This document shows positions 16,464 to 45,368 of a DNA stretch of 64,000 nucleotides, piece after piece; within the stretch, counting starts at the first letter, position 1; each line of letters opens with the position of its first letter. The stretch lies in assembly GCA_964291265.2 (NCBI GenBank), contig OZ219747.1, forward strand, positions 2,560,001 through 2,624,000, written 5' to 3'. Below the pieces are notes generated by a model that had not been told where the DNA came from, searched no databases, and was given only the letters and a program-made list of their open reading frames with translations. The translations under genes were made by a program, and so were the position numbers. The DNA comes from Alphaproteobacteria bacterium. Lineage in GTDB: Bacteria; Pseudomonadota; Alphaproteobacteria; SP197.

Positions 16464-17298
16464 CGAACCACCTGAAGACACCTCGCCGTTTGCAGGGTGC
16501 ACCGGGCGAGACCGAGGAGCCGGTCGGATTGCGGCATGATGCCTGCGCAACAGGAACGCCGCCTGGCTCGGACCGAGGCGTTCGAGGGCTGCCGGATGGC
16601 CGCTCACCGACCGGGGTGGATGGCGCAGCAATAGCACTCGGCCACGCGCGTCGAGGTGACGGCGGTTGGAATCCCAGGCTGCCATGTGGTCGTATGGCGC
16701 CACCATCGGGCACGGCGCGTTCATCGTGTCTTCGCGAAGCGTTGCCGTACCGCAAGATACGAGGATTGACCGAAGGCTCGGAACCCACCACAATCAACCA
16801 TCATTGCGTGACCGAACCGAACGCAAACGCTTGCGACTGTTCAACTTGAGCCATGATGTAGTATCTATGCCTCATTGGTACTTCGGGTGGTGGACACGGG
16901 CCGAAGAGGCGGCGAGAAAGGGGCGTTCAACAACATGTTCGGCCGGAACCAGAAACAGGATCACCGGGCCCCTTTGCCGGGTGAGATATTCCCTTCGATC
17001 GACTTCAACGCCCTCGGAAAACAACTCCGTCTGGAAGTGCGTGGGCTGAAGAACGGCAGGGCCGGCCATCCCGACAGCGGAGCCACCGAGTTCGACCCGG
17101 TTGAGAACGAGATCGTCAATACTGTCGACGCAATCCGAAGGCAGGGTCTCGCGCGAGCCGCCGATTACGAGAAGGTTTATCGAGATCGAATTACCGACGG
17201 CGGTGCTTTCGGACCGGGAATTCGGGAAATCGCCAACAACGCCGACACCGACTTCCGCAGGGGTAAGCGTTCGGCCACGCGGTGATTGTTGGTGATAT

Positions 17299-17606
17299 TC
17301 ACCGGTTGAGGATGCGTTTGGGAGGCGCACCACGTGGCGGTTCGCTGTTGGGTCCGAAGACGATGGGTCCGGGTCGGGTTGCTCGTCGTTGGGGTGGCGG
17401 CAGGGTGATGAGGCCGTCGCGGTGCATGGCCAGAAAGGCGACATTCGCCATCATGTTCTTGAGGCCCCGTCGGGCTTGTATCAGCCGGTCTCGCGGCAGA
17501 AGGCGCGGGCGATGGCCGCACGGGTGGGGTGCTGGGTGATCAGGGAGCGCAACAGCGCCATCTCGTGCGCGGTGAAGTCACGGCCGTCGTAACGGCACTC
17601 GATCAC
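17299..17606 (-). pseudogene. Truncated N-terminal part of a DUF4338-type protein, coupled to the IS66-A transposase
   Basis: Own translation: VIECRYDGRDFTAHEMALLRSLI..FCRETG*YKPDG..LAMHRDGLITLPPP; GTGA overlap with the transposase stop; internal TGA. Confidence 0.65.
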
Positions 17607-20059
17607 CCCGGTTCCATGAGGTCCCTTCGACGCTCCGGGGGCATCGACCATGGCAGCCACGGGTCGAGGTCATCCGGCGGCTTGCCGCCGTTCTGCGCGC
17701 AGGCCTCAAGCCACTCATGAAGCCAGCGCCGAACATTGATGTTGTTCATGGCAAGGGTGCCGATGACCGAGTACATGATGGCGGTGAAGGCGGCGCCTTC
17801 CTCGCTGTCGGAGCCGAAGCTCAGCTTTCTCGCGGTCACCGCACCCCGGAGGGCTCTCTCGGCAAAGTTGTTGTCCATGGGCACCTGGGGATGGTCGACA
17901 AAGACGCACAGTCCCTCGCGGTGACGGATCAGGGAACGCAAGGGCTTCGCTTCGCGTGCACCCTCGGGCAAGGCGTCGAGTTCCTCCTGAGCCTGCCTGA
18001 ACAGCGCCTCGACAGCCGCACGAAGGTCCTTCTGCAGGGCATTGAACCTCGCTGACTGACGCTTGCGTGCGGGATCGTAGTGCTTCAGCCGTTGCCCATT
18101 CAGTGTGTAGATCAGCGCGATCCTGTCGAGCCACTTGTCGCACCACTCTTCCAGCCCCTCCTGGCCTGCCGCAGCCTCGATCACATCGCGCCTGGAGTGC
18201 GCCCAGCAAAGGCAGAGGATCACCTTGCCATCAAGCTCACGCTCCAGTTTCCTGTAGACCACGTAGCGGTCGCAAACAAGGAAGACGACACCTTCGGTGG
18301 AGGCGAACAGCACCATGGCCACCCGGGCGCTGCGTGACGGGTCGATAAGGAAGAAGACGGAGTCGGCGCTGACCGCGGTCCACAGCCAGGCCTTCTGCGA
18401 GCGCCCCGAGGCCTTGAGGGACTGGATGCGCCAGCTGGTCTCGTCGCCGTGGCGCACCGTCAGCCGGTTCTGATGATCGAGGATGGCCTGAGCGAGAGGC
18501 GCGAACATCGGCGTCATCTTCTTCATGCCGCCAGCGATCGTTCCCGGCGCCATCGGCAGTCCCTGGTCTTCCAGCCATCGCGAGACCCGGCGCAGGGGAC
18601 GCAAGCAGGCGAAGCGCTCATAGAGCACGCATTCCCAGACACTGATGCCGAAGGGGGTATTCGCAAGCAAGCGCAAAGGTGGCGGCGCGATGATCTCCGC
18701 AGGCGCCGACGAACACTGACAACCACGGCGCCAACGCCCACGTTCAATCCGCCGGATATGAGCCTTGACATGGACCTCCATGATCGAGGTCTCGTGGCTG
18801 CCGTTGGCCACATAGGGCTCGCCGCAACACGGGCACGTGCGCTGCGATGCCGGTGGATCATGGCGTTCGTGCTTCTCCTTGAGCTTCGGACGCGGAGTGC
18901 GCCCGTGGCCGCTCTTGCCGGGTTGCTGACCCCGCTTGTTCCCGGTGCCTTCCTTCTTCTTCCGTTTCTCGCTCTTCGACCCGAAGCGCGCCGTCGCGTG
19001 CTTGGCACGCGTCCCGCGGAGATTCCTCAGCTCGCTCGCCTGTTCAGCGTTCTTGAGCTTCAGAGCGTCCCTTTCCTGCTCCAGCGCCTCCGCTCGGACC
19101 TGTCCACGCTTCACCTCCCGGCGAGCCTCCTTGAGCTGATCACGAGTGCGGTCGAGATGAAACTTGAATGTGCCCGCACGGGCACGGGCAGAATTCTTCG
19201 CACGGCGCAGGTCAGACGCGGTAGGGATGCGCATTGCTGCGCACCCCCCGCGCAGATCCGGACGTGGACGTTAATCCATCCGGCTCCTACCTCGGGTACT
19301 GGACGGCAAACCACTGGACTAGCCTGCGGCTTCCCGTATCCGATCCGCCGCCTGTGGCACGCTTGCCCGACACTGCGTTCGGTGCGTGCTTTAGCGTCCC
19401 GGATTCCCCTTGGTTGAGGCCCTTTCCTCCAGCGACTCCGCAGAAGCTAACGCTTCCTTGTTCGCCGCCTTCACAGGTACTACGGCCTCATCCGACTTCT
19501 TCAAACCGTACATCATAGGCTTCGGTTTTCTCCTTCCCCATGCGGTCCCGCCACAACCGGCGGGACGGTTTGAAGATCTCCCAGGGTCCCAACAGAAGGC
19601 GTGCGGACGTGCATGGGTTCTCTGACACCGCGGGGCTCGCCGACATCTCACCAAATCGATGCCTGCGATGTTGCCTTCGACCAATGCGAAAGCCTCGGCA
19701 CCCCGGATGATAGCTTTTTCGGTGCTCATTAGCCCTGCCCATCCGTACCGCTACCGACGCTTCGCCTGCCCCCTCGCGGGAACCGACGCACGGCTCGCGG
19801 AGAAACGTGGTTTGGTTACTCCTTCGTTCCAGGGGACTTTCACCCCCTACCTTCCGCCAGTTCGCCTGGCACACCGCATACGCGCTTCCGCCGCATCCGC
19901 ACGAACCCGCTCCGCCTCATAGAGCGCACGCCAGTCAGGCGCCTCGCATGACAAGGCCACTGACGCCCGACATAGGCCGTCACCACCTCCCGTCAGCTGC
20001 TGTGTCGCTCCGCGCGTCTCGGCAAAAGTCTTCATGGCCTCGACCATAATCGAGACCAA
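17603..20059 (-). CDS. tnpC: IS66-family transposase interrupted by a sense-oriented group II intron
   Basis: FGSKSEK, GQQPG..GHGR, CPCCG, HGDETSW, LVCDRY, CWAHSRR, DNNFAERALR. Confidence 0.9.
19215..19874 (-). ncRNA. Internally deleted (RT-less) group II intron, 660 nt
   Basis: 5' GTGTGCCAGGCG; domain V gAGCcggatggattaacgtccacgtccggatc; inserted between ATGCG and TGACC (uninterrupted at about 39295-39310); 3' end reads UC. Confidence 0.9.
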
Positions 20060-21186
20060 ACGAGTTTACCAGCTCTTTCTCAGACGATAGTCAGCAAGAC
20101 CCAAACCAACCAAAATCAGCCATCACCGAACGGCCGAACGCTTACCCGCAGGGAAGTGGACGCACGGCACAGCCGACTGAAGGACGCCATCGAGGATCGA
20201 CACAGGAGCGAAGCCGACCTTGCGCAATTCAAACAGGACAATAATCTGAACAGGGAGGCTCATGAGACAGGAGGCTTGTTGAAATGGTTTGCCATCTGTG
20301 TCATCATCGTTCTTGTAGAATCGGTGATGAATGGGGTTTTCTTCGCCGATGCGAATGTCGCCGGGCTGGCGGGAGGCACGATGACCGCCTTGGCTATTTC
20401 AGTCATGAATGTCGGAGCAGCGAGCCTTGCTGGACACGCCTTCCGACAAAAAAATCATGTCAAGGTTTCGCGTCGACTTACAGGATGGCTTGCACTGATT
20501 GTCGCAACCGGTCTTGCGGCGTTCATCAATTTTCTGGTAGGACATTTTCGTGATTTGGCGTCCACGATTCCCTGGAGTGAGGCCGCCGGTGCGGCGTTTG
20601 GGCGCGTGGTCGCAGGGCACATTCAGATGCAAAGTCTGGATGCTTGGCTCCTGACCGGCTTCGGACTGCTGATTGCCGCCATCGCCGTCTGGAAAGCATA
20701 TGGGGCCCTCGATCCTTATCCCGGTTACAGTCGTGTATTGGATAACTTCACCAGGAGACGGAACGAGTGGCAGGATTTGAAGGAGGAAACACTCGATGTC
20801 TTGATCGAAACTCGGGACAAGGCGATCACCGATCTGAAGGACGAGTGCGACGTACGCCGGAACCGTTTCGACGCCGCTCAGAAAGCCTGGACGGGATTCC
20901 TTGACCTTATGAGCCGACGGCGCGATTTCCTGAAGGAGTGCGACAGGGCGGCCAGCAATCTTCTCACCGTTTATCGGGACGCCAACCGAAAGGCGCGCTC
21001 CACGCCGGAGCCGGGTTACTTTCGGCTACCGTTCGGTTTCTCCCCAGAAGAGGAACCTGTCAAGCCGCCGCCGCCAGGTCCAGCGAACCCGGACCCCACT
21101 GACCTTGTGAAGGAAGCGGTGGAGCGTATCCATCAGGCGTGCCAGAGCGCCATGGATGCAATCGGTGATGATCGGAATAACCGAGC

Positions 21187-22008
21187 ATGAGCTTTCGGTC
21201 TCGACAACGTCGACCGTTGCGCGGGCGGAGCCAGGCGCCGAATTGGGTATGGATCCTCGCTATGGCTGTGGCCATTGCCGTCGCAGTCGTTTTAGCCGTC
21301 CTTGTGCAGTCATTCAAGGAAGAGGAAGTTGACGAAAGGCTGTGCCCCAAGGCCTCCGGCCCGGTTTCAGGAATGGCGGTACTTCTGGACCTGACCGACA
21401 CGCTGCAACCGGTTCAATACCAGAGGCTCCGGGACCTTCTCGACGATAGGATCAGGGATGCAAGTCGGGGCGCCATTATCTCAGTTGGCGCAGTGCGTGC
21501 GGATGCCTCGGAGCGGAACGCCGATTTCGTGCTCTGTAAGCCGGCGACGGGCGAAAAGGCGAACGAGTTCTACCAGAATCCGCGCCTGATCGAAGAACGC
21601 TACCGGGAGGAGTTTCTGGTGCCATTCAAGACCATCGTTTCGGCGATGCTGAACAGCCCTGAAGCGGACCGTTCTCCGATCATGGAATCGTTGCAAGCGT
21701 TGCTTGTCTCGACGCCAGGCTTTGTCGATGCGACCTATCCCCGGCGCGTCATCGTCGTCTCCGACCTGATCCAGAACAGCGAGACGTTCAGCTTCTATCG
21801 CAGCGACACCTGGCAGCGGTTTGTCCGCTCACAGGATGCGGAGCGACTTGCGGGCCGCCTGCAAGGCGTCGTGGTCGAGATATGTCGTATTCCGCGGTCC
21901 GGCGCCAGGGTCGACAAGGCGGTAGTGGACGATTTCTGGGCCAACTATTTCGACAGAGCAGGCGCAAGCGATGTTCTCACGTCCACTTGCTCGCTCGGTG
22001 ATCTCTGA
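21187..22008 (+). CDS. Membrane-anchored vWA-like domain protein (operon gene 2)
   Basis: N-terminal TM; VLLDLTD (MIDAS-like), SPIMESL, VIVVSDLIQNS. Confidence 0.7.
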   Translation: MSFRSRQRRPLRGRSQAPNWVWILAMAVAIAVAVVLAVLVQSFKEEEVDERLCPKASGPVSGMAVLLDLTDTLQPVQYQRLRDLLDDRIRDASRGAIISVGAVRADASERNADFVLCKPATGEKANEFYQNPRLIEERYREEFLVPFKTIVSAMLNSPEADRSPIMESLQALLVSTPGFVDATYPRRVIVVSDLIQNSETFSFYRSDTWQRFVRSQDAERLAGRLQGVVVEICRIPRSGARVDKAVVDDFWANYFDRAGASDVLTSTCSLGDL

Positions 22009-22041
22009 AGTCGGCAGCATCTCCAAAGAGGGTCTTCTGTC

Positions 22042-23421
22042 ATGCGCATCGGCTGGGTATCCGTGAACAAGGTTGCCCTTCTGGTCGCCTTTGTTATCGG
22101 GATCTGTGGCGTTGCATTGTTGAAGTGGGAAGGCTATCCGATCCATTGGACTATCGGATGGCCGATCTGCACCATCATTCTTTACTGGCTGATCATGCTG
22201 GCCAGGAACGATAGTGGTGTTTACGAAATCATCGGAGACAATTGCTATTATCTCGGTTTTGTATTCACGCTTACGAGCTTGGCGGTCACACTTTATCTGC
22301 TTCACAGGATCGGCGATGTGGAGACACAGGACCAACTGCCGATCCGGGAGGTGATTTCAGGTTTCGGCGTCGCGTTGTCGTCCACGATCGTGGGCATCGT
22401 GCTGCGGGTGTTGATGCTTCGCATGACCCCCGATCTGGCGCAGCAGGAGGGCGAGACGCGCGTCGATCTCGACCTCGCGGTACGCGACTTCCGCACTCAT
22501 CTCAGCATGAGCATCGGCGAGTTGAAACGCTATTCGATCGAAACAAGCCAAGTGCTGGCGGAACAGCGAGACGCAATCCGGAAAACGCTGGTGCAGGACG
22601 TGGATACGCACCGCCAAGCCCTGGAGTCCGGCACAACGGCGATGACCCGTTTCTCGGAAGAGACCGAAAGCAGGCTGTCGGAGCATTGGGTGGCCCTGGA
22701 AGAAGGCGTGAGCCGAGACGCCAAGGCGTATCGTGAAGCTGCGCAGGAAAGCGTTTCGACCTTTCGCGAGGCCTTGGAGGGGATTGCGGATACCGTTTCG
22801 GAGCGGCACGGCTTGGTTCGGGAAGCGTTGCAACGCAGCGGTGACGAGTACCACCAGGCACTCGAAACCGGCACGGCCGACCTGCGCCGTGTCCTTGGTG
22901 AAGCGATGCAGGCGTTCGCGGATTACCGCGAGGAGGCGGACCGGCTGGCGAGCCTAAGCCGGCAGATTTTCGAACAGACGGGAAAGAGCGCTGAAGCTGC
23001 CCGTAGTGAACTGGAACGCATGAATGCGTTGACCGGAAGCATGGCCGCACTGTCGAGCGAAGGCCGTTCCCTCGATGCGGCGCTGTCCAGCGTTGTCGGC
23101 AAGCTAGCAGTGGTCGAGGACGGCATTGCAACGAAGCTCGAACCCGCCGTTACGCGCATAAGCGAGGGCGCGACCGCTATTTCCGCGGTGCTGGCGGAGT
23201 CTTCCGGAAAACTCAAATGGGCGGCGGAGCGCTTCGAGGTGGCGGCGGAACGCACGGCTGCGGCCGACATGCAAACGAATATCGCGGGCGCAGCCGAACG
23301 CATCGCCGACGCGGCGGGAAGGCTGGAAACGGCGAACACCGCGCTGTCCGGGGCCGTAGAGAAACTCTGCGCACTGGCGGAGAGAAGAGCGCGGGGCATC
23401 GGCAGTATCTTCAACCGCTAG
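22042..23421 (+). CDS. MotA/TolQ/ZorA-like membrane protein with long helical tail (gene 3)
   Basis: YYLGFVFTLTSL..GFGVALSSTIVGI TM pair, followed by about 320 aa of Ala/Glu-rich coiled coil. Confidence 0.75.
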   Translation: MRIGWVSVNKVALLVAFVIGICGVALLKWEGYPIHWTIGWPICTIILYWLIMLARNDSGVYEIIGDNCYYLGFVFTLTSLAVTLYLLHRIGDVETQDQLPIREVISGFGVALSSTIVGIVLRVLMLRMTPDLAQQEGETRVDLDLAVRDFRTHLSMSIGELKRYSIETSQVLAEQRDAIRKTLVQDVDTHRQALESGTTAMTRFSEETESRLSEHWVALEEGVSRDAKAYREAAQESVSTFREALEGIADTVSERHGLVREALQRSGDEYHQALETGTADLRRVLGEAMQAFADYREEADRLASLSRQIFEQTGKSAEAARSELERMNALTGSMAALSSEGRSLDAALSSVVGKLAVVEDGIATKLEPAVTRISEGATAISAVLAESSGKLKWAAERFEVAAERTAAADMQTNIAGAAERIADAAGRLETANTALSGAVEKLCALAERRARGIGSIFNR

Positions 23422-23441
23422 TCGAAGCAAGGAGTAGAGCG

Positions 23442-25193
23442 GTGCGCAGGTATTTCCGCGAGGGGACTTCCGGCAGCCAGTACCGCCGAGGCGCGATCAT
23501 GGGACTGACGGTCGCCGAGGCGTTCATGCTCGTCGCTTTCGTGTTGCTGATGCTGCTCCTGTTCTGGCGCCATCAGGTACAGGATGACATCGAACTGGTA
23601 TCTGAGCTTTCGTCAGAGGACAGGCGTGCGCTGTCGGAAGGCGCGGTTCCGGTGCCAGAAGAACGCCTGACGGTGTTGCAGGTACAGGCCCGGCTGGTCG
23701 AGGACCCGGCGAGGCGTGAACTAGCAGAAGCGGCTGCGGCTCTGGAGCCGTACGAGTTGAGAAAGCTGACGGACCTGGCGCGCGACCCGGATGCGCTTTC
23801 AACGGATGCGGTCCCGGTGCCGGAAGAACGGCTGGCGGCATTGGAGGAACGGGCAGGGTTGGTGGAAGACCCGAAACGGCGTGCATTGGCGGAAACGGCT
23901 GCGACCCTGGAGCCGGACGCGTTGCAAAGGCTGACGGACCTGGCGCGCGACCCGGATGCGCTTTCAACGGATGCGGTCCCGGTGTCGCCGGAGCGTCTGG
24001 CGGCGTTGGAGGATCATGAGCAATGGGTCGAGGAGAACGGGGACGAGATCGCTGAAGCGCTGAATTTGCGTCGGGCACTCGATCCAGAGGGAGAAGACAG
24101 CAATGAGGTGTTGCTGGACCGGATTCGGGACTTGCTGACCAAGGAAAGCGACGGCGACAGTCGGCTTGCGGCAGTCAAGGACCGGCTTGCCGAAGACGCG
24201 GCGGCGCGCGGAGAATTCATCGACAATCTGAAACGCGAACTTGCGGCGGACGTGGGGAAGGCGGGCGGCCAGATCGATCCGTCCGGCCGGGTCGTGTTTC
24301 CCGAGACAGTGGTTTTCGAGACCGGCAGTGCCGTTATTCCACTGAGTTTCAAGGCTGTGCTGGATGACATCTGCCCCCGATGGCTGGCGGAGCTCAGGGA
24401 CTCGGCGGATCGGTTCGATATTGCCGAGATCCGCATCGAGGGCCATTCTTCGCCGGAATGGGCCAGTGCGCAAACGAAACGGGACGCATGGGTGGCGAAT
24501 CTCGGCCTGTCGCAGCGCCGGGCGCAATCGGTGCTGGCGCACTGCCTGGATCATGCGGCAGGAACGCCGCTCGGTGAGTGGGCGCGCGGCAAGCTCACGG
24601 CGGTCGGTTACTCGTCGTCCAGACCCGTAACGGTGGACGGAAAGGAAGATCCTGGCGCATCGCGGCGCGTCGTGCTCGGCCATGAATTCAACCGGGACAG
24701 GCTGATCGCTGATCTCGGAGACGTCGGGCGGATGGAAACCGGTAGCGGCGCGACCCGGCCCCTCGGCGGCAAGGCCCTCGTCATCGACGCTGACACGATA
24801 AAGATCGGGGAGGCCGCGACCCGGATCCGGCTTGACGGCATTGACGCGCCTGAACTCCAACAGACCTGTATCGCGGCGGACGGGTCCGAATGGCCCTGCG
24901 GCCGAGAGGCGGGCCGGGCACTGGAAGCGCACATTGCTGGCCGCAATGTGGTCTGCGAGCGCCTGCGTCCCGGTCTGATGCGGCTCTGGGGCGTGTGTCG
25001 GATCGACGGCGAGGAAGTCGAGTTGAATCGTTGGGTGGTGGAGGCGGGGTGGGCCTTCGCGTTCGTCGAGTTCTCAAGGGACTATGCCGGCGATGAAGCC
25101 ACCGCCCGCATGGCGCATCGGGGAATCTGGTCCGGTCAGGTGCCCGTACCACCTTGGGAGTGGCGGCGGAATCGGAAACGCGCCGCGCCGTGA
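23442..25193 (+). CDS. MotB/ZorB-like TM + OmpA-like domain protein fused to a C-terminal thermonuclease (SNase) domain (gene 4)
   Basis: RBS AGGAG and GTG start; TM GLTVAEAFMLVAFVLLMLLLF; FETGSA..IRIEGHSS..NLGLSQRRAQSV..AVGYSSSRP..SRRV; VIDADT..RLDGIDAPE..GWA..Y..E..A..RGIW. Confidence 0.85.
   Translation: MRRYFREGTSGSQYRRGAIMGLTVAEAFMLVAFVLLMLLLFWRHQVQDDIELVSELSSEDRRALSEGAVPVPEERLTVLQVQARLVEDPARRELAEAAAALEPYELRKLTDLARDPDALSTDAVPVPEERLAALEERAGLVEDPKRRALAETAATLEPDALQRLTDLARDPDALSTDAVPVSPERLAALEDHEQWVEENGDEIAEALNLRRALDPEGEDSNEVLLDRIRDLLTKESDGDSRLAAVKDRLAEDAAARGEFIDNLKRELAADVGKAGGQIDPSGRVVFPETVVFETGSAVIPLSFKAVLDDICPRWLAELRDSADRFDIAEIRIEGHSSPEWASAQTKRDAWVANLGLSQRRAQSVLAHCLDHAAGTPLGEWARGKLTAVGYSSSRPVTVDGKEDPGASRRVVLGHEFNRDRLIADLGDVGRMETGSGATRPLGGKALVIDADTIKIGEAATRIRLDGIDAPELQQTCIAADGSEWPCGREAGRALEAHIAGRNVVCERLRPGLMRLWGVCRIDGEEVELNRWVVEAGWAFAFVEFSRDYAGDEATARMAHRGIWSGQVPVPPWEWRRNRKRAAP
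23643..24010 (+). repeat. 165-bp (55-aa) internal tandem repeat, about 2.2 copies, in the stalk of the ZorB-like protein
   Basis: AVPVPEERL..LTDLARDPDALSTD repeated. Confidence 0.9.
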
Positions 25194-26228: not shown

Positions 26229-27686
26229 CTAGCTGGCCACTTTTAATCCGCCTTTCCTACCAAGGCGGTACCCGACCCTGAAGACATCCGGGATGTTGAC
26301 ACGGCCGTCGCGCATGCGAAGGAAAATTCCCAAAGATTCAAGGTCCAGACGAACACCCGGGGCCCGTTCACGAATATGTTTAGGCGGTAGTTTCAACGCA
26401 TTCTGTTCCACGTCTTCGGCAAGGTGGTCGAGAACGCGATTGTCGCTCCACCGCGCCTCAATCTCTTCGAATCTGCAAGGCACTGTCAAGCCGACAAGGC
26501 TCTTCAGAACCTCATCCACCCAAGGATAATCTTCTTTGACCTCCGCCACCTGAATCTCAGATGCCACCTGCACCCCGCGCTTAATGCTCTCATAGTGGAG
26601 AGTGTACTTATGCTCCGGATAACGCTCCGCCGTGTCCTCCGCAGCTGTGCGCAGTGCTCGAAGAAATGAACGCGGACTTACCCTTCCTGCAGTATCTCCA
26701 AGATGGCTAGAAATCCAAGTATAGGGAAAACCTCTTCTCCTATTTCGGCCCATGAAAGGACCGGATATGTCATGGAATTTCTCTCTTTGAACGTCGACAT
26801 TCGAAATCAGGCGTCGGGACACTTGGAACAGTTTTTTATCCCCAACGTCGATGGAGCCCAAGTTCCCACATCCGACAAACTTGCGAAACTCCTCTGCGTG
26901 GTTCCCATTGACGAGGCTATGCCAGAAAAGACCATACAGCTCAGAAGTCGGCCAACTCAATTCAACAGAGGAGGAAAGGATCTTTGACGCGTCCGGAAAA
27001 TTGGCGATCTGGGTTTCGTCGACCTGATCGGGTCGCAAGAACATCTTGACACGGAGCCGACGGTAGAATCGCATATCAAGCGCCGTCTGCATCAAACCAC
27101 GAATTAGCCGATACATATCCTCCCAATCGTCCGAGCAGCGGTCCAGGGCATCGAACAGAAACAAAAAATGGGTGTTTTTATCGTTAAATTCGTTATCGCG
27201 TTCAAGGAAGAGGTTTGCAATCTCTTCCGGTTCCTGATCGACATAGTTCAGGCGTGCTTCCCAGGACTCCTGGTCCCGGATTGGGTGGTCGGTGCTAGCG
27301 AGCTGCCAAGCCTGTACCGTACGCCAGATGGTCCTTGGCTCCGCCCTAGCATGCAAGAGCCGCCTGATTACATCCTTGCCCGGATAACCATCCGGTGCTG
27401 GTCTGACACCGAATCCTGTCCGCACCTCGGTATCTTCGCTCAGCATTGATCCACGGCTGGTTTGATAGACAAGATGACGAATTTTCCGTTCCTGAAGTGC
27501 GGTCCACCAGAATGTTTTGCCGGCACCGCGCATACCGGTGACAAGCATGTTGTCCGGGTTCATCGCCTTCACATGAGATGGGGGAAGGTACACATGGGCG
27601 ATGTCGGGGTATTCGGCATGACTTGTCTCTTCCGGCAACTGGGCTAGCGCAGTTCGCGCTCCTTCAACATTGATCAGTCCGCTCAC
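26229..27686 (-). CDS. P-loop ATPase of unknown function
   Basis: Walker A GMRGAGKT, Walker B FLFLFDALD, SPRSFL; visibly lower GC than the flanks. Confidence 0.8.
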   Translation of the reverse strand: MSGLINVEGARTALAQLPEETSHAEYPDIAHVYLPPSHVKAMNPDNMLVTGMRGAGKTFWWTALQERKIRHLVYQTSRGSMLSEDTEVRTGFGVRPAPDGYPGKDVIRRLLHARAEPRTIWRTVQAWQLASTDHPIRDQESWEARLNYVDQEPEEIANLFLERDNEFNDKNTHFLFLFDALDRCSDDWEDMYRLIRGLMQTALDMRFYRRLRVKMFLRPDQVDETQIANFPDASKILSSSVELSWPTSELYGLFWHSLVNGNHAEEFRKFVGCGNLGSIDVGDKKLFQVSRRLISNVDVQREKFHDISGPFMGRNRRRGFPYTWISSHLGDTAGRVSPRSFLRALRTAAEDTAERYPEHKYTLHYESIKRGVQVASEIQVAEVKEDYPWVDEVLKSLVGLTVPCRFEEIEARWSDNRVLDHLAEDVEQNALKLPPKHIRERAPGVRLDLESLGIFLRMRDGRVNIPDVFRVGYRLGRKGGLKVAS

Positions 27687-28984
27687 ACCTGACTCCCTTC
27701 ACCGCCAGCATTAACACGTTGGTCAAACGACTTCAGGAATCTTCCATACGCAGAGTTAACGGTTTCCTCGTCAAGGTCTTGAAGCAATGAGCCCGCTGCG
27801 AAGCCAAGAGTCCAAGCTATTTCCAAAGGATCGTGGGGCGCGTTTTCTTCGTACAAATCAAACGAAAACTCACTGATTGAGTCGTTTGTTGGATTCACTT
27901 CGTCATAGAGATGGTCCCGAAATAGATCCCATGACCGCGTTCGGAACCCCTCAACATACTCTTCCCTATTGGGTGCAGGTGTCAGTGCTGATACGACCCA
28001 CACTCGCTCCCTGATGCGTTCCGCCAGGTTTCTCTCGCGCCAGTGGCGGAACAAAATCCCATAGTCCGTCCAAGTGCTTTCCGAATCGGTAGCGAATAAC
28101 AACGCTTGCGCTCGCAAGTCGGTAACAGATGCCGCCGCGATGTCGTGCAGGCCATTGCGGCTCTCCAGCAACACCACCGTTGGCTTGAAGACAGTTTCCA
28201 AATTGACCAGGACGCGTTCGAGGCGGTCCGTCCACGGTTCGTGCACCTTGTCCATGTACACACGCCCTAGCTTAGCCAAATACTCCCCAGGATCGTGGCC
28301 GTGCGCGGGCACAACGCGGACATCGCCATCGAAGTTCTGAGCCCAGGACGGAGTAGCAAGCATATCTTCAATTATCCGATTTCCTTGCCCAACAAGATCC
28401 TCGACGAACCAGTCGGTCAAGCCGAACTTCGGCCACCGTTCTTTCTCCAGCATCGCTGAGGAAAGACCGGGTGATTCAAGATCCATGTCAACTGCCAGCA
28501 CTCGTTCCCCCTTGCGTGCAAGGTGCCACGCAAGCACTGCGGCTGTCGTGCTGCGTCCCATACCACCCTTGACGGAATAGAGGGTGACACGTACGGACCC
28601 GGAGTCTTCCGCGGGGTCTCCAACGGTCCACCAGCCACGCCCCGTCACCAGACGGTCGACTAGGAACACGCCCGAACTGATCTCCTGAGCCGTATCGTCT
28701 AGACTCCTCAGCAACGCATCACCGATGAACAGTACGCCCTCTTTCTCAGGGTAGCCACGAACACCTAAAGCCTTGTTTAGAGAGATGGCAAGCCGCTCCA
28801 GCGCGTTACGCACAACCAGATTTTCCTCGAGTGTATCCGATGCCGATATGCGCACCTTACCGAGCAAGTCACGCACCAGATAGAGGTGATCGATCCCGTC
28901 AGGGACGCCCCCCTCTCCCAAATCTGCGATCGCGTTTTTGACGCGGCTCCGCATGTCGTCGAAAGGGATGAAGTCGTCTCTCAC
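27683..28984 (-). CDS. ParA/MinD-like KGGVGR-variant ATPase
   Basis: YSVKGGMGRSTT, VDMDLESPGL, LLESRNGL. Confidence 0.82.
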   Translation of the reverse strand: MRDDFIPFDDMRSRVKNAIADLGEGGVPDGIDHLYLVRDLLGKVRISASDTLEENLVVRNALERLAISLNKALGVRGYPEKEGVLFIGDALLRSLDDTAQEISSGVFLVDRLVTGRGWWTVGDPAEDSGSVRVTLYSVKGGMGRSTTAAVLAWHLARKGERVLAVDMDLESPGLSSAMLEKERWPKFGLTDWFVEDLVGQGNRIIEDMLATPSWAQNFDGDVRVVPAHGHDPGEYLAKLGRVYMDKVHEPWTDRLERVLVNLETVFKPTVVLLESRNGLHDIAAASVTDLRAQALLFATDSESTWTDYGILFRHWRERNLAERIRERVWVVSALTPAPNREEYVEGFRTRSWDLFRDHLYDEVNPTNDSISEFSFDLYEENAPHDPLEIAWTLGFAAGSLLQDLDEETVNSAYGRFLKSFDQRVNAGGEGSQV

Positions 28985-29395: not shown

Positions 29396-30874
29396 TCACC
29401 CCTTGTTAGGGTCTGGTTGTCCGTAGTGTTGGTTGAGGATGTCTACGGCCTTTCCGTCGAGGGCGATGTGGATGGCGACGTGAGGGTTGTAGCCGAGTGC
29501 GTCCATGGTGGTGAGGTAGCTTGAGCCGCGGCACCATGCTTTGGCGTGGGGCATGGTGCGGAAACATCCGGACACCTTGATCTTGACCTTTGTCATCCTG
29601 ATCTTCTGCTCTCCGGTATTGTTGGTGAAACTGACGTTGGGGTCCTTCATGAAGCGCAGGACGGACTTCTCGTGTTTCACGAGACGTTCATGCAGGTTGT
29701 GCGCGTCGGACTTTGCGATGCGTCCACGTTTTCCTTTCGTCCGTGGCGGGATGTCGGGCAGTTCCTTGGCGCCCTGGGTGAGGATGGTGCGGTAGCGCTT
29801 GCGCACGGCCCGGCGGTCGGCCTCGTTCAAGGTCTTGGATGCGCTCTTGTTGACCCTGCGGGAGACCTCGCGCAGCAGGCTTTTCATCAGTCGCGCCCAG
29901 CGGTAGCCGTTGGACTCGACGACGAAGGTCAGTTCGCGCAGGAGATGGCTGCCGCACAGTTGGTGGCGGCATTGATCGTAGCCCATGTAGGCAGCCCAGC
30001 AGTCGTGGATCAGGACGCCCTTGTAGCGCGGGATGATGCCGATCTCTTCGATCGCCTCCCGGCCGCGCTTGGGGTGCGGGAACTTGCACGTCAGGGTGCC
30101 GTCGGTGACGACATGGAGCCATTGGGTCTTGCCGGCGACCCGGAAGCCGGTCTCGTCGACATGCAGGGCCGGTTGTTGCAGGAGATGGGCCACGGCGGCC
30201 TCCTCCCATGATGCGAGGGCATCGTGAAAGCGCCGGACATAGCCGAGGCAGGTCGCCTCGGAGAGCTTGATGCCGGAGATCGCGTGCACGAGCGAGACGG
30301 CACGACGCAGGGACAGCATCTGGGCGATCAGCAGGTTGATGACGAGGGCCTGGATGCTGACGCCGTACTGCAGGGGGCCCGGCATGTTGTCTGGGAACCG
30401 GCCCTTGGTCCGGGCCCGGCACTTCGGGCATTCCTTGATCTCGGCTTCGACGCGGCGCTCGACGACTTCGAACACGATGTCGTAGAGGACGCGGCACTCC
30501 CGGTCGACGGGGTCGACATCGTGGAGGTCGGCGCCGCAGGCGTCGCAGGCATCGACGACGATCGTCTCCTCGATGGTGGTCGTGCGCAGGTTGTCGCCCG
30601 TCTGCTGGTTCGGTTTCGGGCCCTTGCCGTTGCTCCCGGTGCGCCTCGCGCTCTCGTCCTTGTCAGTCTGCGATGGCGGCAGACCGGAGTTCCGGCTTGT
30701 CTTACGTGTGATCTTCTCCATGAGCACGGTCAGCAACAGCTTTATCAGCATCAGCATGCCGCGGAAGAGCTCCTCGCACTCCTGGCTGACCTTGCCCTGC
30801 TTGCGGAGATCCTGGAACTGCTTCTGGAAGATGTCGGCCTCCTGGCGCACAGACGTGCCGTTCACGCTCGCCAT
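29396..30874 (-). CDS. tnpC: IS66-family transposase (element B)
   Basis: KTSRNSGLPPS, CDACG, HVDETG, IHDCW, CGSHLLREL, FTNNTGEQ. Confidence 0.92.
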   Translation of the reverse strand: MASVNGTSVRQEADIFQKQFQDLRKQGKVSQECEELFRGMLMLIKLLLTVLMEKITRKTSRNSGLPPSQTDKDESARRTGSNGKGPKPNQQTGDNLRTTTIEETIVVDACDACGADLHDVDPVDRECRVLYDIVFEVVERRVEAEIKECPKCRARTKGRFPDNMPGPLQYGVSIQALVINLLIAQMLSLRRAVSLVHAISGIKLSEATCLGYVRRFHDALASWEEAAVAHLLQQPALHVDETGFRVAGKTQWLHVVTDGTLTCKFPHPKRGREAIEEIGIIPRYKGVLIHDCWAAYMGYDQCRHQLCGSHLLRELTFVVESNGYRWARLMKSLLREVSRRVNKSASKTLNEADRRAVRKRYRTILTQGAKELPDIPPRTKGKRGRIAKSDAHNLHERLVKHEKSVLRFMKDPNVSFTNNTGEQKIRMTKVKIKVSGCFRTMPHAKAWCRGSSYLTTMDALGYNPHVAIHIALDGKAVDILNQHYGQPDPNKG

Positions 30875-31607
30875 GACGACGCCTCCACCGCCATGACTGC
30901 CGCCAGCACGGCGAGCCGCTCGCCTTCGGGCATCGTCCGGTAGCGCCGCGCCCAGCTCTCTGCGAGGCGCTTGATGCGCTGGCGGTCGATCGAGTTCCTG
31001 CCCGCACACGTATGCCAGTGCGGTCGGCCCGGTGCGAAGTTGAACCACAGCTTCTCGGTGACAACGCAGGCCTGGTTGTTGACCTGGACCTCGGCCGAGC
31101 GCCAGCCGGCGAGGTGCGTGTCGTAGAGCCGCGAGGGATAGCCGGAGATCATCACCTGGCAGGGCAGCGACGTCAGGATGTCGAGGAGCGCAACATGGTC
31201 ATCGTCCGTGCAGTCGAAGCGGTAGCGGCGCTGCGACCGGCGCGTCGACTGCACGTAAGGCGGGTCGCAGTAGACCAGCTCGCGGCCCTGGAAGGCGAAG
31301 GTCTCGAGAAAACGCAGGGCGCAGCCTTGGTGAAGCTCCACCGGATAGTCACAGCGGAAGGTGTCGATCGCCCGGCGGTTGAGGTCAATGCCGATGCTGC
31401 GCAGCGCCGGTGGCTTGCGCTTCATGATCGCGCCGCCCCCAAGGAACGCCTCGATGTACACGTCATGCGGCGGCATGGCCGCGACGATCGCCTTATATGA
31501 CCAGGTTTTGTCCCCGTGATGATGCAATCATCCACAGCGGTTGGCGGCGGGAAAATGTGGACAACCCCGACTGTGGGAGAGGGCCCGGTCTATGGTTGCA
31601 GAGAGAT

Positions 31608-32756
<1,149 letters not shown>

Positions 32757-32785
32757 CCTTGCGAGTGAGCGAAGGAGACACCCTC

Positions 32786-33076
32786 ATGGCCCTCACCCCT
32801 GCCGAGAAGCAGCGCCGTTATCGGGAACGCCGCAAGGCCGGCATCCCTGCCGTCCACCACCGAAAGCCCTGCGACCGTCGTTCCCGTGCGCAACGCTGGC
32901 GCGATGCGGTGGCCGAGCTCGGTGCATTGCAGGAGCATTATCGAGACTGTCTCGACAGTCTTCCCGACTCCCTGCGCGACACGGCTTACGGAGAACGTCT
33001 GCAGATCATCGTCGAGGCCGACATCGAGGCTCTCGAGGAGATCGAACCGCCGCGCGGCTACGGACGGGACACATGA
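32786..33076 (+). CDS. IS110 accessory small basic protein (MALTPAEKQRRYRERRK..), 96 aa
   Basis: RBS AAGGAG; homolog at 4319..4609. Confidence 0.8.
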   Translation: MALTPAEKQRRYRERRKAGIPAVHHRKPCDRRSRAQRWRDAVAELGALQEHYRDCLDSLPDSLRDTAYGERLQIIVEADIEALEEIEPPRGYGRDT

Positions 33077-33330
33077 CACCTGGAACCCCCTTGATCACGG
33101 TAACGTTACCATGCCCGGGGACGCTGGGCGGCAAGGTGGCCGCGCTCATCGGTAACGTTACCGTGATCAATGGACGGCAACTCGCTCATGCCGCCGGGAC
33201 GCATGACACCTGGAACTTCATCAAACACGGTAACGTTACCATGTCCGGGAACGCCGGCGGCAAAGCGACCGCACTCGCCGGTAACGTTACCATGATCAAT
33301 GGACAACAACCCGCCCATGCCGCCGGGACC
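33065..33330. repeat. Two ~130-bp units containing four GGTAACGTTACC palindromes
   Basis: Palindromes at 33099, 33151, 33229 and 33280. Confidence 0.92.
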
Positions 33331-33594
33331 ACAAGCTGCATGTCGCCTCGCTCGCAGGACAAGAACATCGACAAGGCGGAACCCCAGACCGCTGTGGACA
33401 ACCACAGAAAACATCACCACGGACACCCGCAAAAAACCTTGCCGGGAAACATGGATGCTGGCTCAGACCCGTCGTCGCCTTCGATCCATACCATGCCGCC
33501 ATCAATATCTCCGACGCAAACCGCCCCGATGGCCAGCATGTAGAGTGCCCCTCCTACAATGTCAAGCGCATATCTCCAGAGGATTGGAAAGGCA

Positions 33595-33648
33595 GCCAAC
33601 CGCTGTGGATGATTGCATCATCACGGGGACAAAACCTGGCCATATAAG
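33595..33648 (-). other. 54-bp copy of the IS110 left end (starting at the CT core) inside IS66-B
   Basis: rc CTtatatggccaggttttgtccccgtgatgatgcaatcatccacagcggttggc differs from 31492-31545 at one base; also present at 45427-45480. Confidence 0.9.
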
Positions 33649-35023
33649 GCCGGAACGTGGAGCTGAAGACGAAGATCGATCCGCTTCTTGTCAGTCGGAA
33701 CACGCACATCCGATCATCGGAAGCGAGCAAGTGAAGGCGGCAAGAGACAATGCCGGATTCGAACCCGTCAGGAAAAACGATCCGTCATCAGTAGGGGGTG
33801 AGTAGTTACCCCGGTTCCATGAGGTCCCTTCGACGCTCCGGGGTCATCGACCATGGCAGCCACGGGTCGAGGTCATCCGGCGGCTTGCCGCCGTTCTGCG
33901 CGCAGGCCTCAAGCCACTCATGAAGCCAGCGCCGAACATTGATGTTGTTCATGGCAAGGGTGCCGATGACCGAGTACATGATGGCGGTGAAGGCGGCGCC
34001 TTCCTCGCTGTCGGAGCCGAAGCTCAGCTTTCTCGCGGTCACCGCACCCCGGAGGGTTCTCTCGGCAAAGTTGTTGTCCATGGGCACCTGGGGATGGTCG
34101 ACAAAGACGCACAGTCCCTCGCGGTGACGGATCAGGGAACGCAAGGGCTTCGCTTCGCGTGCACCCTCGGGCAAGGCGTCGAGTTCCTCCTGAGCCTGCC
34201 TGAACAGCGCCTCGACAGCCGCACGAAGGTCCTTCTGCAGGGCATTGAACCTCGCTGACTGACGCTTGCGTGCGGGATCGTAGTGCTTCAGCCGTTGCCC
34301 ATTCAGTGTGTAGATCAGCGCGATCCTGTCGAGCCACTTGTCGCACCACTCTTCCAGCCCCTCTTGGCCTGCCGCAGCCTCGATCACATCGCGCCTGGAG
34401 TGCGCCCAGCAAAGGCAGAGGATCACCTTGCCATCAAGCTCACGCTCCAGTTTCCTGTAGACCGCGTAGCGATCGCAGACAAGGAAGACGGTGCCTTCGG
34501 TGGAGGCGAACAGCACCATGGCCACCCGGGTGCTGCGTGACGGGTCGATAAGGAAGAAGACGGAGTCGGCGCTGACCGCGGTCCACAGCCAGGCCTTCTG
34601 CGAGCGCCCCGAGGCCTTGAGGGACTGGATGCGGTGTGCCAGCATCCATGTTTCCCGGCAAGGTTTTTTGCGGGTGTCCGTGGTGATGTTTTCTGTGGTT
34701 GTCCACAGCGGTCTGGGGTTCCGCCTTGTCGATGTTCTTGTCCTGCGAGCGAGGCGACATGCAGCTTGTGGTCCCGGCGGCATGGGCGGGTTGTTGTCCA
34801 TTGATCATGGTAACGTTACCGGCGAGTGCGGTCGCTTTGCCGCCGGCGTTCCCGGACATGGTAACGTTACCGTGTTTGATGAAGTTCCAGGTGTCATGCG
34901 TCCCGGCGGCATGAGCGAGTTGCCGTCCATTGATCACGGTAACGTTACCGATGAGCGCGGCCACCTTGCCGCCCAGCGTCCCCGGGCATGGTAACGTTAC
35001 CGTGATCAAGGGGGTTCCAGGTG

Positions 35024-35314
35024 TCATGTGTCCCGTCCGTAGCCGCGCGGCGGTTCGATCTCCTCGAGAGCCTCGATGTCGGCCTCGACGATGATCTGCA
35101 GACGTTCTCCGTAAGCCGTGTCGCGCAGGGAGTCGGGAAGACTGTCGAGACAGTCTCGATAATGCTCCTGCAATGCACCGAGCTCGGCCACCGCATCGCG
35201 CCAGCGTTGCGCACGGGAACGACGGTCGCAGGGCTTTCGGTGGTGGACGGCAGGGATGCCGGCCTTGCGGCGTTCCCGATAACGGCGCTGCTTCTCGGCA
35301 GGGGTGAGGGCCAT
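35024..35314 (-). CDS. IS110 accessory small protein, copy 2
   Basis: Same translation as 32786..33076. Confidence 0.8.
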   Translation of the reverse strand: MALTPAEKQRRYRERRKAGIPAVHHRKPCDRRSRAQRWRDAVAELGALQEHYRDCLDSLPDSLRDTAYGERLQIIVEADIEALEEIEPPRGYGRDT

Positions 35315-35343
35315 GAGGGTGTCTCCTTCGCTCACTCGCAAGG

Positions 35344-36309
<966 letters not shown>

Positions 36310-36958
36310 TTATGATGATTCGGTTCAAACCCAGGCATCCATTCAGGACGCAAGGGACGCCAAGGGAGGTTGGCCGACCAAGCTGGCACACGGCTCCGTA
36401 AGGCCAAGGCGAAAACGGTCCGACCAACCTCCGCGGAGATCGTTTGATCCCCGCACCCCGCTCCCCTGTGCTTGATCGCGCAGGGGAGCGGAATCTCTCT
36501 GCAACCATAGACCGGGCCCTCTCCCACAGTCGGGGTTGTCCACATTTTCCCGCCGCCAACCGCTGTGGATGATTGCATCATCACGGGGACAAAACCTGGT
36601 CATATAAGGCGAACTGGCGGAAGGTAGGGGGTGAAAGTCCCCTGAAACGAAGGAGTAACCAAACCACGTTTCTCCGCGAGCCGTGCGTCGGTTCCCGCGA
36701 GGGGGCAGGCGAAGCGTCGGTAGCGGTACGGATGGGCAGGGCTAATGAGCACCGAAAAGTCCGTTGTTCGGGGTGCCGAGGCTTTCGCATCGGTCGAAGG
36801 CAACATCGCAGGCATCGATTTGGTGAGATGTCGGCGAGCCCCGCGGTGTCGGAGAACCCATGCACGTCCGCACGCCTTCTGTTGGGACCCTGGGAGGTCT
36901 TCGAACTATCCCGCCTGTCGTGGCGGGACCGTGTAGGGAAAGGAGAAAGCCGAAGCCT

Positions 36959-38446
36959 ATGAGGAACGGTTTGAAGAAGTCGGATGGGGCCGTAAGACCG
37001 GTGAAGGCGGCGAACAAGGGAGCGTCAGCTTCTGCGGAGTCGCTGGAGGAAAGGGCCTCAACCAAGGGGAATCCGGGACGCCAAAGCACGCACCGAACGC
37101 AGTGTCGGGCAAGTGTGCCACAGGCGGCGGACCGGATACGGGAAGCTGCAGAGAGGAACCCGAAGGAGCGTCTCACTGCACTCTTCCATCACATTACGCC
37201 GGACGCGCTCCGGGCGGCCTACTTCGGTTTGAAGAAGGAAGCCTCGGCAGGTGTCGACGGCGTGACGTGGGCGGCGTATGGCGAGGGTCTGGACGAGCGC
37301 TTGCTTGATCTGCACTCGCGCCTGCATCGTGGGGGAGCGTACCGGGCGCCGCCGGTTCGGCGGGTTGAGATACCCAAGCCGGACGGCGGGACACGACCGC
37401 TCGGGATTGCCGCACTGGAGGACAAGATCGTCCAGAAGGCGGTTGTGGATGTGATCCTGACACCGATTTATGAGGTGGAGTTCCTTGGCTTCAGCTACGG
37501 GTTCCGACCGGGCCGAGGGGCGCATGACGCTCTCGACGCCCTGGCGTTCGGGATCGAGCGGCGCAAGGTCAACTGGATAGTCGACGCGGACATTCAGGGG
37601 TACTTCGACACAATCCCGAGGGATTGGTTGATCAAGTTCCTGGAGCATCGCATTGGCGACAGGCGGGTGATCCGTCTGATCCGCAAGTGGCTGAACGCTG
37701 GCGTCATGACCGACGGATCATGGAGCGACACCGGTGCGGGCACGCCTCAGGGCGCCATTGTCAGCCCCTGCCTGGCGAACGTGTTTCTGCACTACGTGCT
37801 CGATCTGTGGTTTCACAAGGCATGGCGTCCGAAGGTTCCGAACGGTAAAGCGATCATTGTCCGCTACGCGGACGATATTGTGGTCGGGTTCCAGCATAAG
37901 CGGGATGCGGAGACATACCTTCGCGACGTTCGGGAGAGGCTGGACCGCTTTGGTCTCACCCTTCACCCGGACAAGACCCGTCTCGTTGAGTTTGGACGGT
38001 TTGCCAAGGCGAACCGGCGATCTCGCGGGGCGGGCAGGCCGGAGACGTTCGACTTCCTGGGCTTCACGCACTTCTGCACGGAGACCCGGAGAGGACGCTT
38101 CAGGCTTGGTCGCAAGCCGGTCGCAAAACGGGTCGCAAGGACCCTGGCGCGCATCGAGGAGGTGCTTCGCAATCGACGGCATCACGACATATGGGAGGTC
38201 GGCATGTGGCTTGGGCGAGTTGTCAATGGCTGGTCCAACTACTTCGCCGTTCCGGGGTCGACCCGATGGCTGCGCACGTTCCGCCAAAGGCTGCAACGCC
38301 TATGGCTGCGAGCGATCCGCCGCCGCTCCCAGCGCCACTGCTTTGACTGGAAGCGATTGGAGCGCATGACCGAGCTTCTTTGGCCGCGCGTCTCCATCCG
38401 CCACCCATGGCCGGACCAGCGGTTTACCGTCAAGCACCCGAGGTAG
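36959..38446 (+). CDS. ltrA: Group II intron reverse transcriptase/maturase without endonuclease domain
   Basis: RPLGI, SYGFRPGR, DADIQGYFD, GTPQG, YADD, FDFLGF; ends at HPWP. Confidence 0.95.
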   Translation: MRNGLKKSDGAVRPVKAANKGASASAESLEERASTKGNPGRQSTHRTQCRASVPQAADRIREAAERNPKERLTALFHHITPDALRAAYFGLKKEASAGVDGVTWAAYGEGLDERLLDLHSRLHRGGAYRAPPVRRVEIPKPDGGTRPLGIAALEDKIVQKAVVDVILTPIYEVEFLGFSYGFRPGRGAHDALDALAFGIERRKVNWIVDADIQGYFDTIPRDWLIKFLEHRIGDRRVIRLIRKWLNAGVMTDGSWSDTGAGTPQGAIVSPCLANVFLHYVLDLWFHKAWRPKVPNGKAIIVRYADDIVVGFQHKRDAETYLRDVRERLDRFGLTLHPDKTRLVEFGRFAKANRRSRGAGRPETFDFLGFTHFCTETRRGRFRLGRKPVAKRVARTLARIEEVLRNRRHHDIWEVGMWLGRVVNGWSNYFAVPGSTRWLRTFRQRLQRLWLRAIRRRSQRHCFDWKRLERMTELLWPRVSIRHPWPDQRFTVKHPR

Positions 38447-39583
38447 GAGCCGGATGGATTAACGTCCATGTCCGGATCTGTGCGGGGGGTGCGCAGCAAT
38501 GCGCATCCCTACCGCGACCCAGCTGGTCTCGTCGCCGTGGCGCACCGTCAGCCGGTTCTGATGATCGAGGATGGCCTGAGCGAGAGGCGCGAACATCGGC
38601 GTCATCTTCTTCATGCCGCCAGCGATCGTTCCCGGCGCCATCGGCAGTCCCTGGTCTTCCAGCCATCGCGAGACCCGGCGCAGGGGACGCAAGCAGGCGA
38701 AGCGCTCATAGAGCACGCATTCCCAGACACTGATGCCGAAGGGGGTATTCGCAAGCAAGCGCAAAGGTGGCGGCGCGATGATCTCCGCAGGCGCCGACGA
38801 ACACTGACAACCACGGCGCCAACGCCCACGCTCAATCCGCCGGGTATGAGCCTTGACATGGACCTCCATGATCGAGGTCTCGTGGCTGCCGTTGGCCACG
38901 TAGGGCTCGCCGCAACACGGGCACGTGCGCTGCGATGCCGGTGGATCATGGCGCTCGTGCTTCTCCTCGAGCTTCGGACGCGGGGTGCGCCCGTGGCCGC
39001 TCTTGCCGGGTTGCTGACCCCGCTTGTTCCCGGTGCCTTCCTTCTTCTTCCGCTTCTCGCTCTTCGACCCGAAGCGCGCCGTCGCGTGCTTGGCACGCGT
39101 CCCGCGGAGATTCCTCAGCTCGCTCGCCTGTTCAGCGTTCTTGAGCTTCAGAGCGTCCCTTTCCTGCTCCAGCGCCTCCGCCAGGTCCTGTCCACGCTTC
39201 ACCTCCCGGCGAGCCTCCTCGAGCTGATGACGAGTGCGGTCGAGATGAAACTTGAATGTGCCCGCACGGGCACGGGCAGAATTCTTCGCACGGCGCAGGT
39301 CACGCATGCTCGCTTCCGCCGCATCCGCACGAACCCGCTCCGCCTCATAGAGCGCCTGCCAGTCAGGCGCCTCGCATGACAAGGCCGCTGACGCCCGACA
39401 TAGGCCGTCACCACCTCCCGTCAGCTGCTGTGTCGCTCCGCGCGTCTCGGCAAAAGTCTTCATGGCCTCGACCATAATCGAGACCAAACGAGTTTACCAG
39501 CACTTTCTCAGACGATAGTCAGCAAGACCCAAACCAACCAAAATCAGCCATCACCGCACGGCCGAACGCTTACGGACCAGCAT

Positions 39584-42489: not shown

Positions 42490-42681
42490 AGCATCGCCAC
42501 CGTGCGTCATCAAGATCAGAACCGTATTCCGAAGCATCGGCTGCTCTTCCGATGGCGGCATGGCGCCGAGCAGTCGCCCGAACCCCTCGCCGTCTATAGA
42601 GCCGCTGTAAACGAATACCGCCGCGTCGAGAGACGCAGAGACAGCGTTCGCGGCTTCGACCACCTCTTCAGGAGGTTGCAT
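42490..42681 (-). pseudogene. N-terminal fragment of a Clp-fold/SDH-type serine protease
   Basis: VFVYSGSID..VLILMTHGGDA, then cut by IS insertions. Confidence 0.6.
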
Positions 42682-45337: not shown

Positions 45338-45368
45338 TATCTCCGACGCAAACCGCCCCGATGGCCAG

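Follow-up and report, generated by a model that had tools for sequence, protein, structure and literature searches.

A predicted Zorya-like membrane operon with an optional, putatively periplasmic nuclease

We describe an operon of four co-oriented genes at 16935-25193 on the forward strand of a 64,000-nucleotide stretch of alphaproteobacterial DNA (the window). It is characterized by a predicted Zorya-like core, preceded by a four-TM helical protein and an anchored vWA protein, and in a subset of its relatives the MotB-like subunit bears a C-terminal nuclease domain. The products are likely to form a ZorAB-like ion-driven motor that, together with the two additional membrane proteins, guards the envelope against phage or incoming DNA. 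That the operon represents a Zorya-like module of envelope defence not described so far, with periplasmic DNA cutting by its armed variants, is in our judgement evenly poised. The literature searched holds no description of it, and it goes unmentioned in the available portions of PMC11406972 and PMC12505986; the supplementary candidate lists of recent defence screens could contain such a system.

Operon layout and its state in the source strain

All four genes of the original prediction are found at their predicted place (Table 1). Genes 1 and 2 overlap by 4 bp, and gaps of 33 bp and 20 bp separate genes 2 and 3 and genes 3 and 4, respectively. The start of gene 4, earlier placed at the ATG at 23217, is corrected to the GTG at 23442 as the most likely one, which gives the same protein as database entry P0001. 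A single, weak promoter-like site is seen at 16766-16794. The gene order 1-2-3-4 is kept in all complete relatives and is never rearranged where the contigs allowed a view, with insertions between or inside the operon genes in a few loci.

Table 1. Features of the operon and of the insertion within it, in window coordinates
Feature	Coordinates	Strand	Description
Gene 1, 5' part	16935..17262	+	N-terminal helices, predicted to be cytoplasmic; start probably at ATG 16935
IS66 element	17263..20145	-	2,883 bp; interrupts gene 1
ORF-less group II intron	19215..19874	-	About 660 nt, inside the IS66 transposase; Rfam RF02005 at 19616-19840
Gene 1, 3' part	20154..21190	+	Four predicted membrane helices and C-terminal helices
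Gene 2	21187..22008	+	N-terminal membrane anchor and predicted periplasmic vWA domain
Gene 3	22042..23421	+	MotA/TolQ/ExbB-like membrane domain and helical tail of about 330 aa
Gene 4	23442..25193	+	583 aa; one TM helix (with Glu26), a stalk of repeats, an OmpA domain resembling that of ZorB2, and an SNase domain
Gene 4 stalk repeats	23643..24020	+	165-bp (55-aa) units from 23643, 23808 and 23973 (third partial)
Gene 4 OmpA-like peptidoglycan-binding domain	24315..24650	+	
Gene 4 SNase domain	24768..25166	+	D449, D451, R463, D468, E471, R514 and four invariant Cys

The disruption of gene 1 by IS66 is confirmed by the target duplication of 8 bp (CCGCAGGG) that flanks the element at 17255-17262 and 20146-20153 and by the intact gene 1 of relatives, which encodes 454-538 aa; read across the element by coordinates, gene 1 of the window is in frame and encodes 454 aa. 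Since gene 1 is interrupted, the operon copy of the source strain is probably inactive. A contig of run X3 lacks 17052-22206, a deletion of 5,155 bp that takes out the bulk of gene 1, gene 2 and the beginning of gene 3. Hence, together with the state of the source copy, the operon appears to be decaying in this lineage.

The source genome has 11 near-full copies of this IS66. The joints of the intron in its transposase are seen in contigs of runs X1 and X2, and removal of the intron in silico gives a longer transposase frame of about 594 codons. As 15 genome hits cover the intron nearly whole, it has spread along with IS66. A second intron, 94% identical to the first and with a reverse transcriptase, is present at about 36600-38520, and could provide the maturase for the ORF-less intron in trans. 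A dense nest of mobile elements occupies 29396-45637 of the window: it includes additional transposases of IS66 and IS110, the reverse transcriptase of a group II intron, an 899-aa transposase and a 550-aa ORF that is present twice.

The membrane components and their relation to Zorya

The predicted Zorya-like motor is supported by gene 4, the periplasmic domain of which matches the PADLOC ZorB2 profile (E 1e-31). Its best match in the PDB is 8vvi_A (E 2e-31, versus 9e-8 for flagellar MotB), which we take to be a structure of type II ZorAB. With the NCBIfam ZorB2 profile it scores 85 bits, far under the family cut-off of 400. As first noted, the TM helix has a glutamate where MotB has aspartate: the motif GLTxAE is observed in all 68 loci of our main set (66 by pattern, two read) and 44 of 44 aligned sequences, the TM glutamate is present in 47 of 48 metagenome loci, and by its position this residue would be the equivalent of the TM aspartate of Zorya and MotB. 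The repeat-extended stalk was likewise recovered, with two full 55-aa units (82% DNA identity) and part of a third in the window and lengths of 75-407 aa among the loci. Three gene 4 variants (L067:4962-5918, L069:6649-7551 and L093:11007-11900) have the GLTxAE helix with no detected OmpA domain. As for a flagellar MotAB stator, gene 4 has no MotB_plug match and reaches only E 1e-4 with MotB profiles, and no flagellar family occurs among the scanned neighbours of the operon.

The N-terminus of gene 3 resembles MotA/TolQ/ExbB clusters (0.93), only 13% of the members of which bear PF01618. Its Pfam MotA match is weak (E 0.05 in the window), as are its matches to the ZorA profile (4e-5 in the window, 2e-8 at best, in L064), which lie mostly within the coiled coil; its PDB matches to ZorA cover the coiled-coil tail only and score below apolipoproteins. 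The tail varies between about 170 and 500 aa among the loci. T76, S114 and T115 are invariant in 41 sequences, as expected if they correspond to the ring of polar residues around the acidic residue of the B subunit in ZorAB and MotAB (PMC11890865, available portion).

The vWA assignment of gene 2 held up: its AF2 model (pLDDT 89) matches vWA structures, with vWA proteins as its Foldseek matches and 4fx5 aligned by VIA-align (Z 12.7, rmsd 2.9 across 159 residues). Across 109 sequences D68 is invariant, and D71, S192 and the near-invariant D193 are conserved in at least 90%; C53 and C117 are invariant as well. The acidic motif has the form DxTxD, not DxSxS, and is consistent with a MIDAS-like acidic site that is probably a metal-dependent binding site. 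For gene 1, Pfam, NCBIfam and PADLOC give no match. The AF2 model of the intact protein from L016 is all helical (pLDDT 89, pTM 0.65), and we read four of its helices as membrane-spanning (three exceeded the hydropathy threshold), with the N- and C-terminal helices bundling together. A known fold was sought for gene 1, with no specific match: there is no Foldseek match at E<=0.001, VIA-align gives generic helical bundles only, and Atlas matches are to unnamed clusters, apart from weak rows below TM 0.3.

In terms of known systems, the operon has by its sequence a predicted Zorya-like core but falls outside Zorya types I-III: no ZorC-G is found, and the TM acid is Glu, not Asp. It shares with type II (ZorA2-ZorB2-ZorE) a putative MotA-like subunit with a long helical tail, a nuclease as partner and the ZorB2 peptidoglycan-binding domain, the closest known match to gene 4. 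Unlike type II, it has no ZorE, has two extra membrane proteins and the long, variable stalk, and its nuclease is optional, predicted to be periplasmic, and either fused or exported; its TM Glu, moreover, stands where Zorya has the critical Asp (D21/D24 in PMC11890865, available portion). With types I and III it has the ZorAB-like core in common; ZorC/ZorD or ZorF/ZorG are unmatched among the tested flanking proteins and no fifth gene is shared. The earlier statement that no cytoplasmic effector is recognisable thus stands: PADLOC finds no ZorC-G in the genes of the window nor, at E<=1e-15, in 71 selected flanking proteins, and two sets of flanking ORFs (2,222 and 1,437) yield no fifth gene specific to the operon. 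Zorya itself requires peptidoglycan binding and ion flow and acts through cytoplasmic effectors (PMC11946911, PMC11890865, available portions), and its type I does not block plasmids (PMC11946911, available portion).

Nuclease domains of gene 4 and its neighbours

The two-domain reading of gene 4, OmpA with a C-terminal SNase, was upheld by Pfam matches of E 1e-6 and 0.0025 in the window; the latter misses the cut-off, with relatives at 1e-8 to 1e-14, and the domain profile matches staphylococcal nuclease structures. In 108 fused domains the catalytic columns are kept almost throughout (D451 108, R463 108, D468 106, E471 106, R514 105); these are presumably D21/R35/D40/E43/R87 of the staphylococcal nuclease type. 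The DRYGR motif is changed, as had been noted, but its arginine is still there as R514.

The fusion does recur in homologous operons. After removal of three duplicates, the set of loci that have genes 2-4 numbers 68, from genomes and plasmids; an SNase is fused to gene 4 in 27, an HNH domain in five, an SNase ORF lies within 3 kb in 15, and 21 have neither. The HNH domain (GmrSD_C/DUF1524, PF07510, E 1e-11 to 1e-13) is unrelated to SNase and sits at the same C-terminus. Among 120 proteins listed by a search around the HNH clade, 46 are HNH-fused, 10 are SNase-fused and 64 are unfused; D409/H410/N448 are kept in 46 of 46 HNH domains. Neither the SNase nor the HNH domain, searched as a single sequence, gave a match in the PDB.

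These observations bear on a reading of the fusion as mere read-through by chance or as an error of assembly, devoid of function, as the sub-threshold SNase match in the window and the at least 24 changes of nuclease state on the tree might suggest. Two unrelated nucleases at the same position in many lineages, with their catalytic residues kept, argue against chance. Assembly error is countered by 98 of 120 homologues with both OmpA and SNase domains among the matches listed (the query being biased towards such proteins) and by contigs spanning the junction in two runs of one study, one of them identical (X1, perhaps the source sample itself) and the other showing 46 differences. We regard this explanation as refuted by the recurrence of the fusion, and its residual probability as very slight. 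Separate origins of the SNase fusion were also considered: a free tree splits the fused domains, but an AU test does not reject a single origin (p 0.33; L065 left out), so that independence is shown only for SNase versus HNH fusion.

Several features fit the predicted periplasmic position of the nuclease, which agrees with the original prediction: SNase and HNH domains have four near-invariant Cys each, the OmpA and vWA domains have invariant Cys pairs, the charge bias around the gene 4 TM points to a periplasmic C-terminus, and signal-like or anchor-like N-termini, as judged by eye, are seen in the 12 adjacent SNases that are intact and in three HNH relatives that stand alone. To our knowledge, all Zorya effectors described so far are cytoplasmic. 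An intact stand-alone SNase adjoins 12 of 36 unfused loci versus 1 of 40 control regions (p 4e-4, which overstates the enrichment, as related loci are not independent); the truncated or divergent ORFs of L020, L033 and L065, three of the 15 adjacent ones, were dropped from this comparison. The SNase background is 0.43 matches per Mb across 59 genomes.

The nuclease is, nevertheless, an optional part of the operon. In a distant metagenome clade none of 48 complete loci (from the best 80 of 156; many with short flanks, several near-identical) is fused, four have an adjacent SNase and 44 are without one. DNA cutting, therefore, cannot be the core of the system, given these 44 of 48 and the 21 of 68 loci without a nearby nuclease and the location of most loci amid housekeeping genes. 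What remains of the claim of an envelope-level system that cuts incoming DNA is the predicted motor, the recurrent fusion and the predicted periplasmic position, and it is strengthened by two features that the original prediction lacked, the second, unrelated nuclease at the same site and the exported SNase genes beside unfused operons.

Nucleases and DNA-entry blocks of the envelope offer partial parallels. SNIPE (PD-Lambda-1) likewise has its nuclease tied to the membrane, where DNA is cut as it enters and the host is spared by this location; its GIY-YIG domain, unlike the predicted position of the nucleases considered here, faces the cytoplasm and it has no motor (PMC13190303, available portion). 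HXS similarly has a periplasmic effector with a peptidoglycan-binding domain that stops phage DNA entry, but HxsA is thought to bind, not cut, DNA, undergoes radical SAM maturation and works with no motor (PMC13128918, available portion). IdeA, Dns, EndoI and Vvn are disulfide-bearing periplasmic nucleases that destroy incoming DNA (PMC12378983, PMC5714182, available portions), but as free enzymes with no tether to a motor complex.

Genomic context and possible functions

A defence family is found among the nearest genes of 10 of 49 operon loci versus 1 of 39 control regions (p 0.02), a count that rests on a crude gene picker, a single Pfam threshold (229 of 233 operon-side and 201 of 205 control proteins scanned), our own judgement of what is a defence family, and controls drawn without family matching. 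These families are restriction-modification, CRISPR, SNIPE, SspB, Lamassu/ABC-3C, PRTase-CE, SIR2-STAND and Schlafen; PADLOC (2023 release) on the 71 selected flanking proteins confirmed several and added PDC-S11, QatC, PDC-M01, STK_OB and PDC-S37/Hhe. The proposed association with defence islands is thus real but modest, holding for a minority of loci. Mobile-element genes are not significantly enriched near the operon (10 of 49 versus 3 of 39, p 0.13). The shared flanking genes of the metagenome clade are regulators and transporters, as read by eye.

The spread of the operon is patchy. An alignment scan of GTDB genomes for gene 2 gave 56 loci; with this query there was none in 22 same-genus genomes, and matches in 13 of 400 other genomes of the phylum. 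In the latter, 14 places were analysed: four with the full operon, six with genes 1-2 only, one with gene 2 only, and three with distant gene-2-like proteins beside an OmpA lipoprotein. Gene 2 is further found on 24 plasmid records, 11 of which, picked for organism diversity, were analysed. Patterns from the close clade found no gene 2 relative on viral contigs, the broad alignment having yielded no usable pattern.

On the reading as an envelope defence module, the products of genes 3 and 4 would assemble into a 5:2 motor with the conserved TM glutamate facing the Ser/Thr ring, and the OmpA domains would grip peptidoglycan upon envelope disturbance, as proposed for Zorya. Gene 1, with its four TM helices and cytoplasmic helical bundle, and gene 2, with its periplasmic vWA domain, may constitute a receptor/adaptor pair that replaces the soluble ZorC-G. 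A fused or neighbouring nuclease could then be concentrated by the complex at the breach; being held outside the cytoplasm, it would spare host DNA by topology alone. Operons without a nuclease would work via their membrane components only. Beyond the domain content, we infer each of these steps. It is less likely than not, though plausible, that the system is in full a new class of Zorya-like immunity, with an interchangeable periplasmic nuclease on a peptidoglycan-anchored rotary motor with a vWA receptor, whereby phage or GTA DNA would be destroyed before the inner membrane and self told by compartment. The nuclease-less loci, the few defence neighbours, the occurrence of genes 1-2 without the motor and the weak ZorA/MotA matches of gene 3 all stand against the defence module, as do the shielding that tailed phages often give their DNA on its way through the periplasm and the lack of plasmid blocking by type I Zorya.

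Some of these same observations would fit a general, Tol/Ton-like envelope machine for stress handling, surface attachment or uptake, in which the nuclease would be an accessory that removes extracellular DNA or makes it available as food. Most loci have housekeeping surroundings (in 39 of 49 the nearest genes include no defence family), the family of gene 2 is large, with 1,923 clusters at 50% identity scoring E<=1e-10, most distant-clade loci have no nuclease, genes 1-2 occur without the motor in some genomes, and in three genomes distant gene-2-like proteins accompany OmpA lipoproteins. We nonetheless consider such a role rather unlikely: no nucleoside transporter, phosphatase or TonB receptor is shared by loci next to the operon, gene 4 is far nearer ZorB than MotB or Pal, and the patchy spread, the plasmid occurrences and the repeated inactivation, by IS66 and by the deletion in a related strain, would be more typical of defence genes.

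As a further alternative, the operon may act against horizontally acquired DNA and not against lytic phage: DNA delivered by GTA or taken up in transformation would be destroyed during its naked passage through the periplasm, as by IdeA, a periplasmic DNase carried on an ICE. The loci are mostly alphaproteobacterial, 33 of 68 being titled Rhodobacterales, in which GTA DNA enters via ComEC/ComF (PMC10883770, available portion), and periplasmic DNases on mobile elements reduce transformation (PMC12378983, PMC5714182, available portions). Nuclease-less operons, however, are common, and the motor would be left unexplained, as a free periplasmic nuclease would suffice; we hold this alternative to be improbable.

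If a motor-tethered periplasmic nuclease is indeed at work, phage DNA would be open to attack while crossing the periplasm, and the operon would afford a direct test of the exposure of injected DNA there. Cultured strains of Paracoccus, Ruegeria, Thalassovita and Rhizobium span the natural states of the nuclease (fused SNase, fused HNH, separate neighbouring gene, absent) and could be compared as a series. Paracoccus methylarcula (L055), for instance, has the SNase fusion, Thalassovita mediterranea (L031) the HNH fusion, and Rhizobium johnstonii 3841 (RL_RS31080-31100) an adjacent SNase. In addition, the operon provides a predicted motor of the MotAB family in which a conserved Glu takes the place of Asp, and two large membrane protein families that are without annotation.

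Additional observations concern the surroundings of the operon and its partial relatives. The pair of genes 1-2 without motor genes is seen at six loci in five genomes (L095-L100), mostly among housekeeping genes, with L100 on a contig that is small and looks mobile. Three genomes from other classes (L102, L103 and L104) have a three-gene unit, which combines an OmpA lipoprotein, with a glycine zipper and a long C-terminal extension, with a helical membrane protein of some 530 aa and a gene-2-like protein with a signal peptide. Three unrelated hosts encode SNIPE homologues (DUF4041 + T5orf172) at distances of 0.25-3.9 kb from the operon (L035:6773-8203, L048:17004-18332 and L088:13539-15122). 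In the window, 1 kb downstream of the operon, homologues of PDC-M28 C and B (E 5e-169 and 5e-132) are encoded at 26229-28984 on the reverse strand, and an IS end at about 29036 lies about 50 bp upstream of the B gene, where the A gene might be expected. DUF4236 proteins directly adjoin the operon in two loci (L034:6873-8072 and L094:6452-7651), as do SH3-domain membrane proteins in two (L090:12145-12903 and L110:11148-11900).
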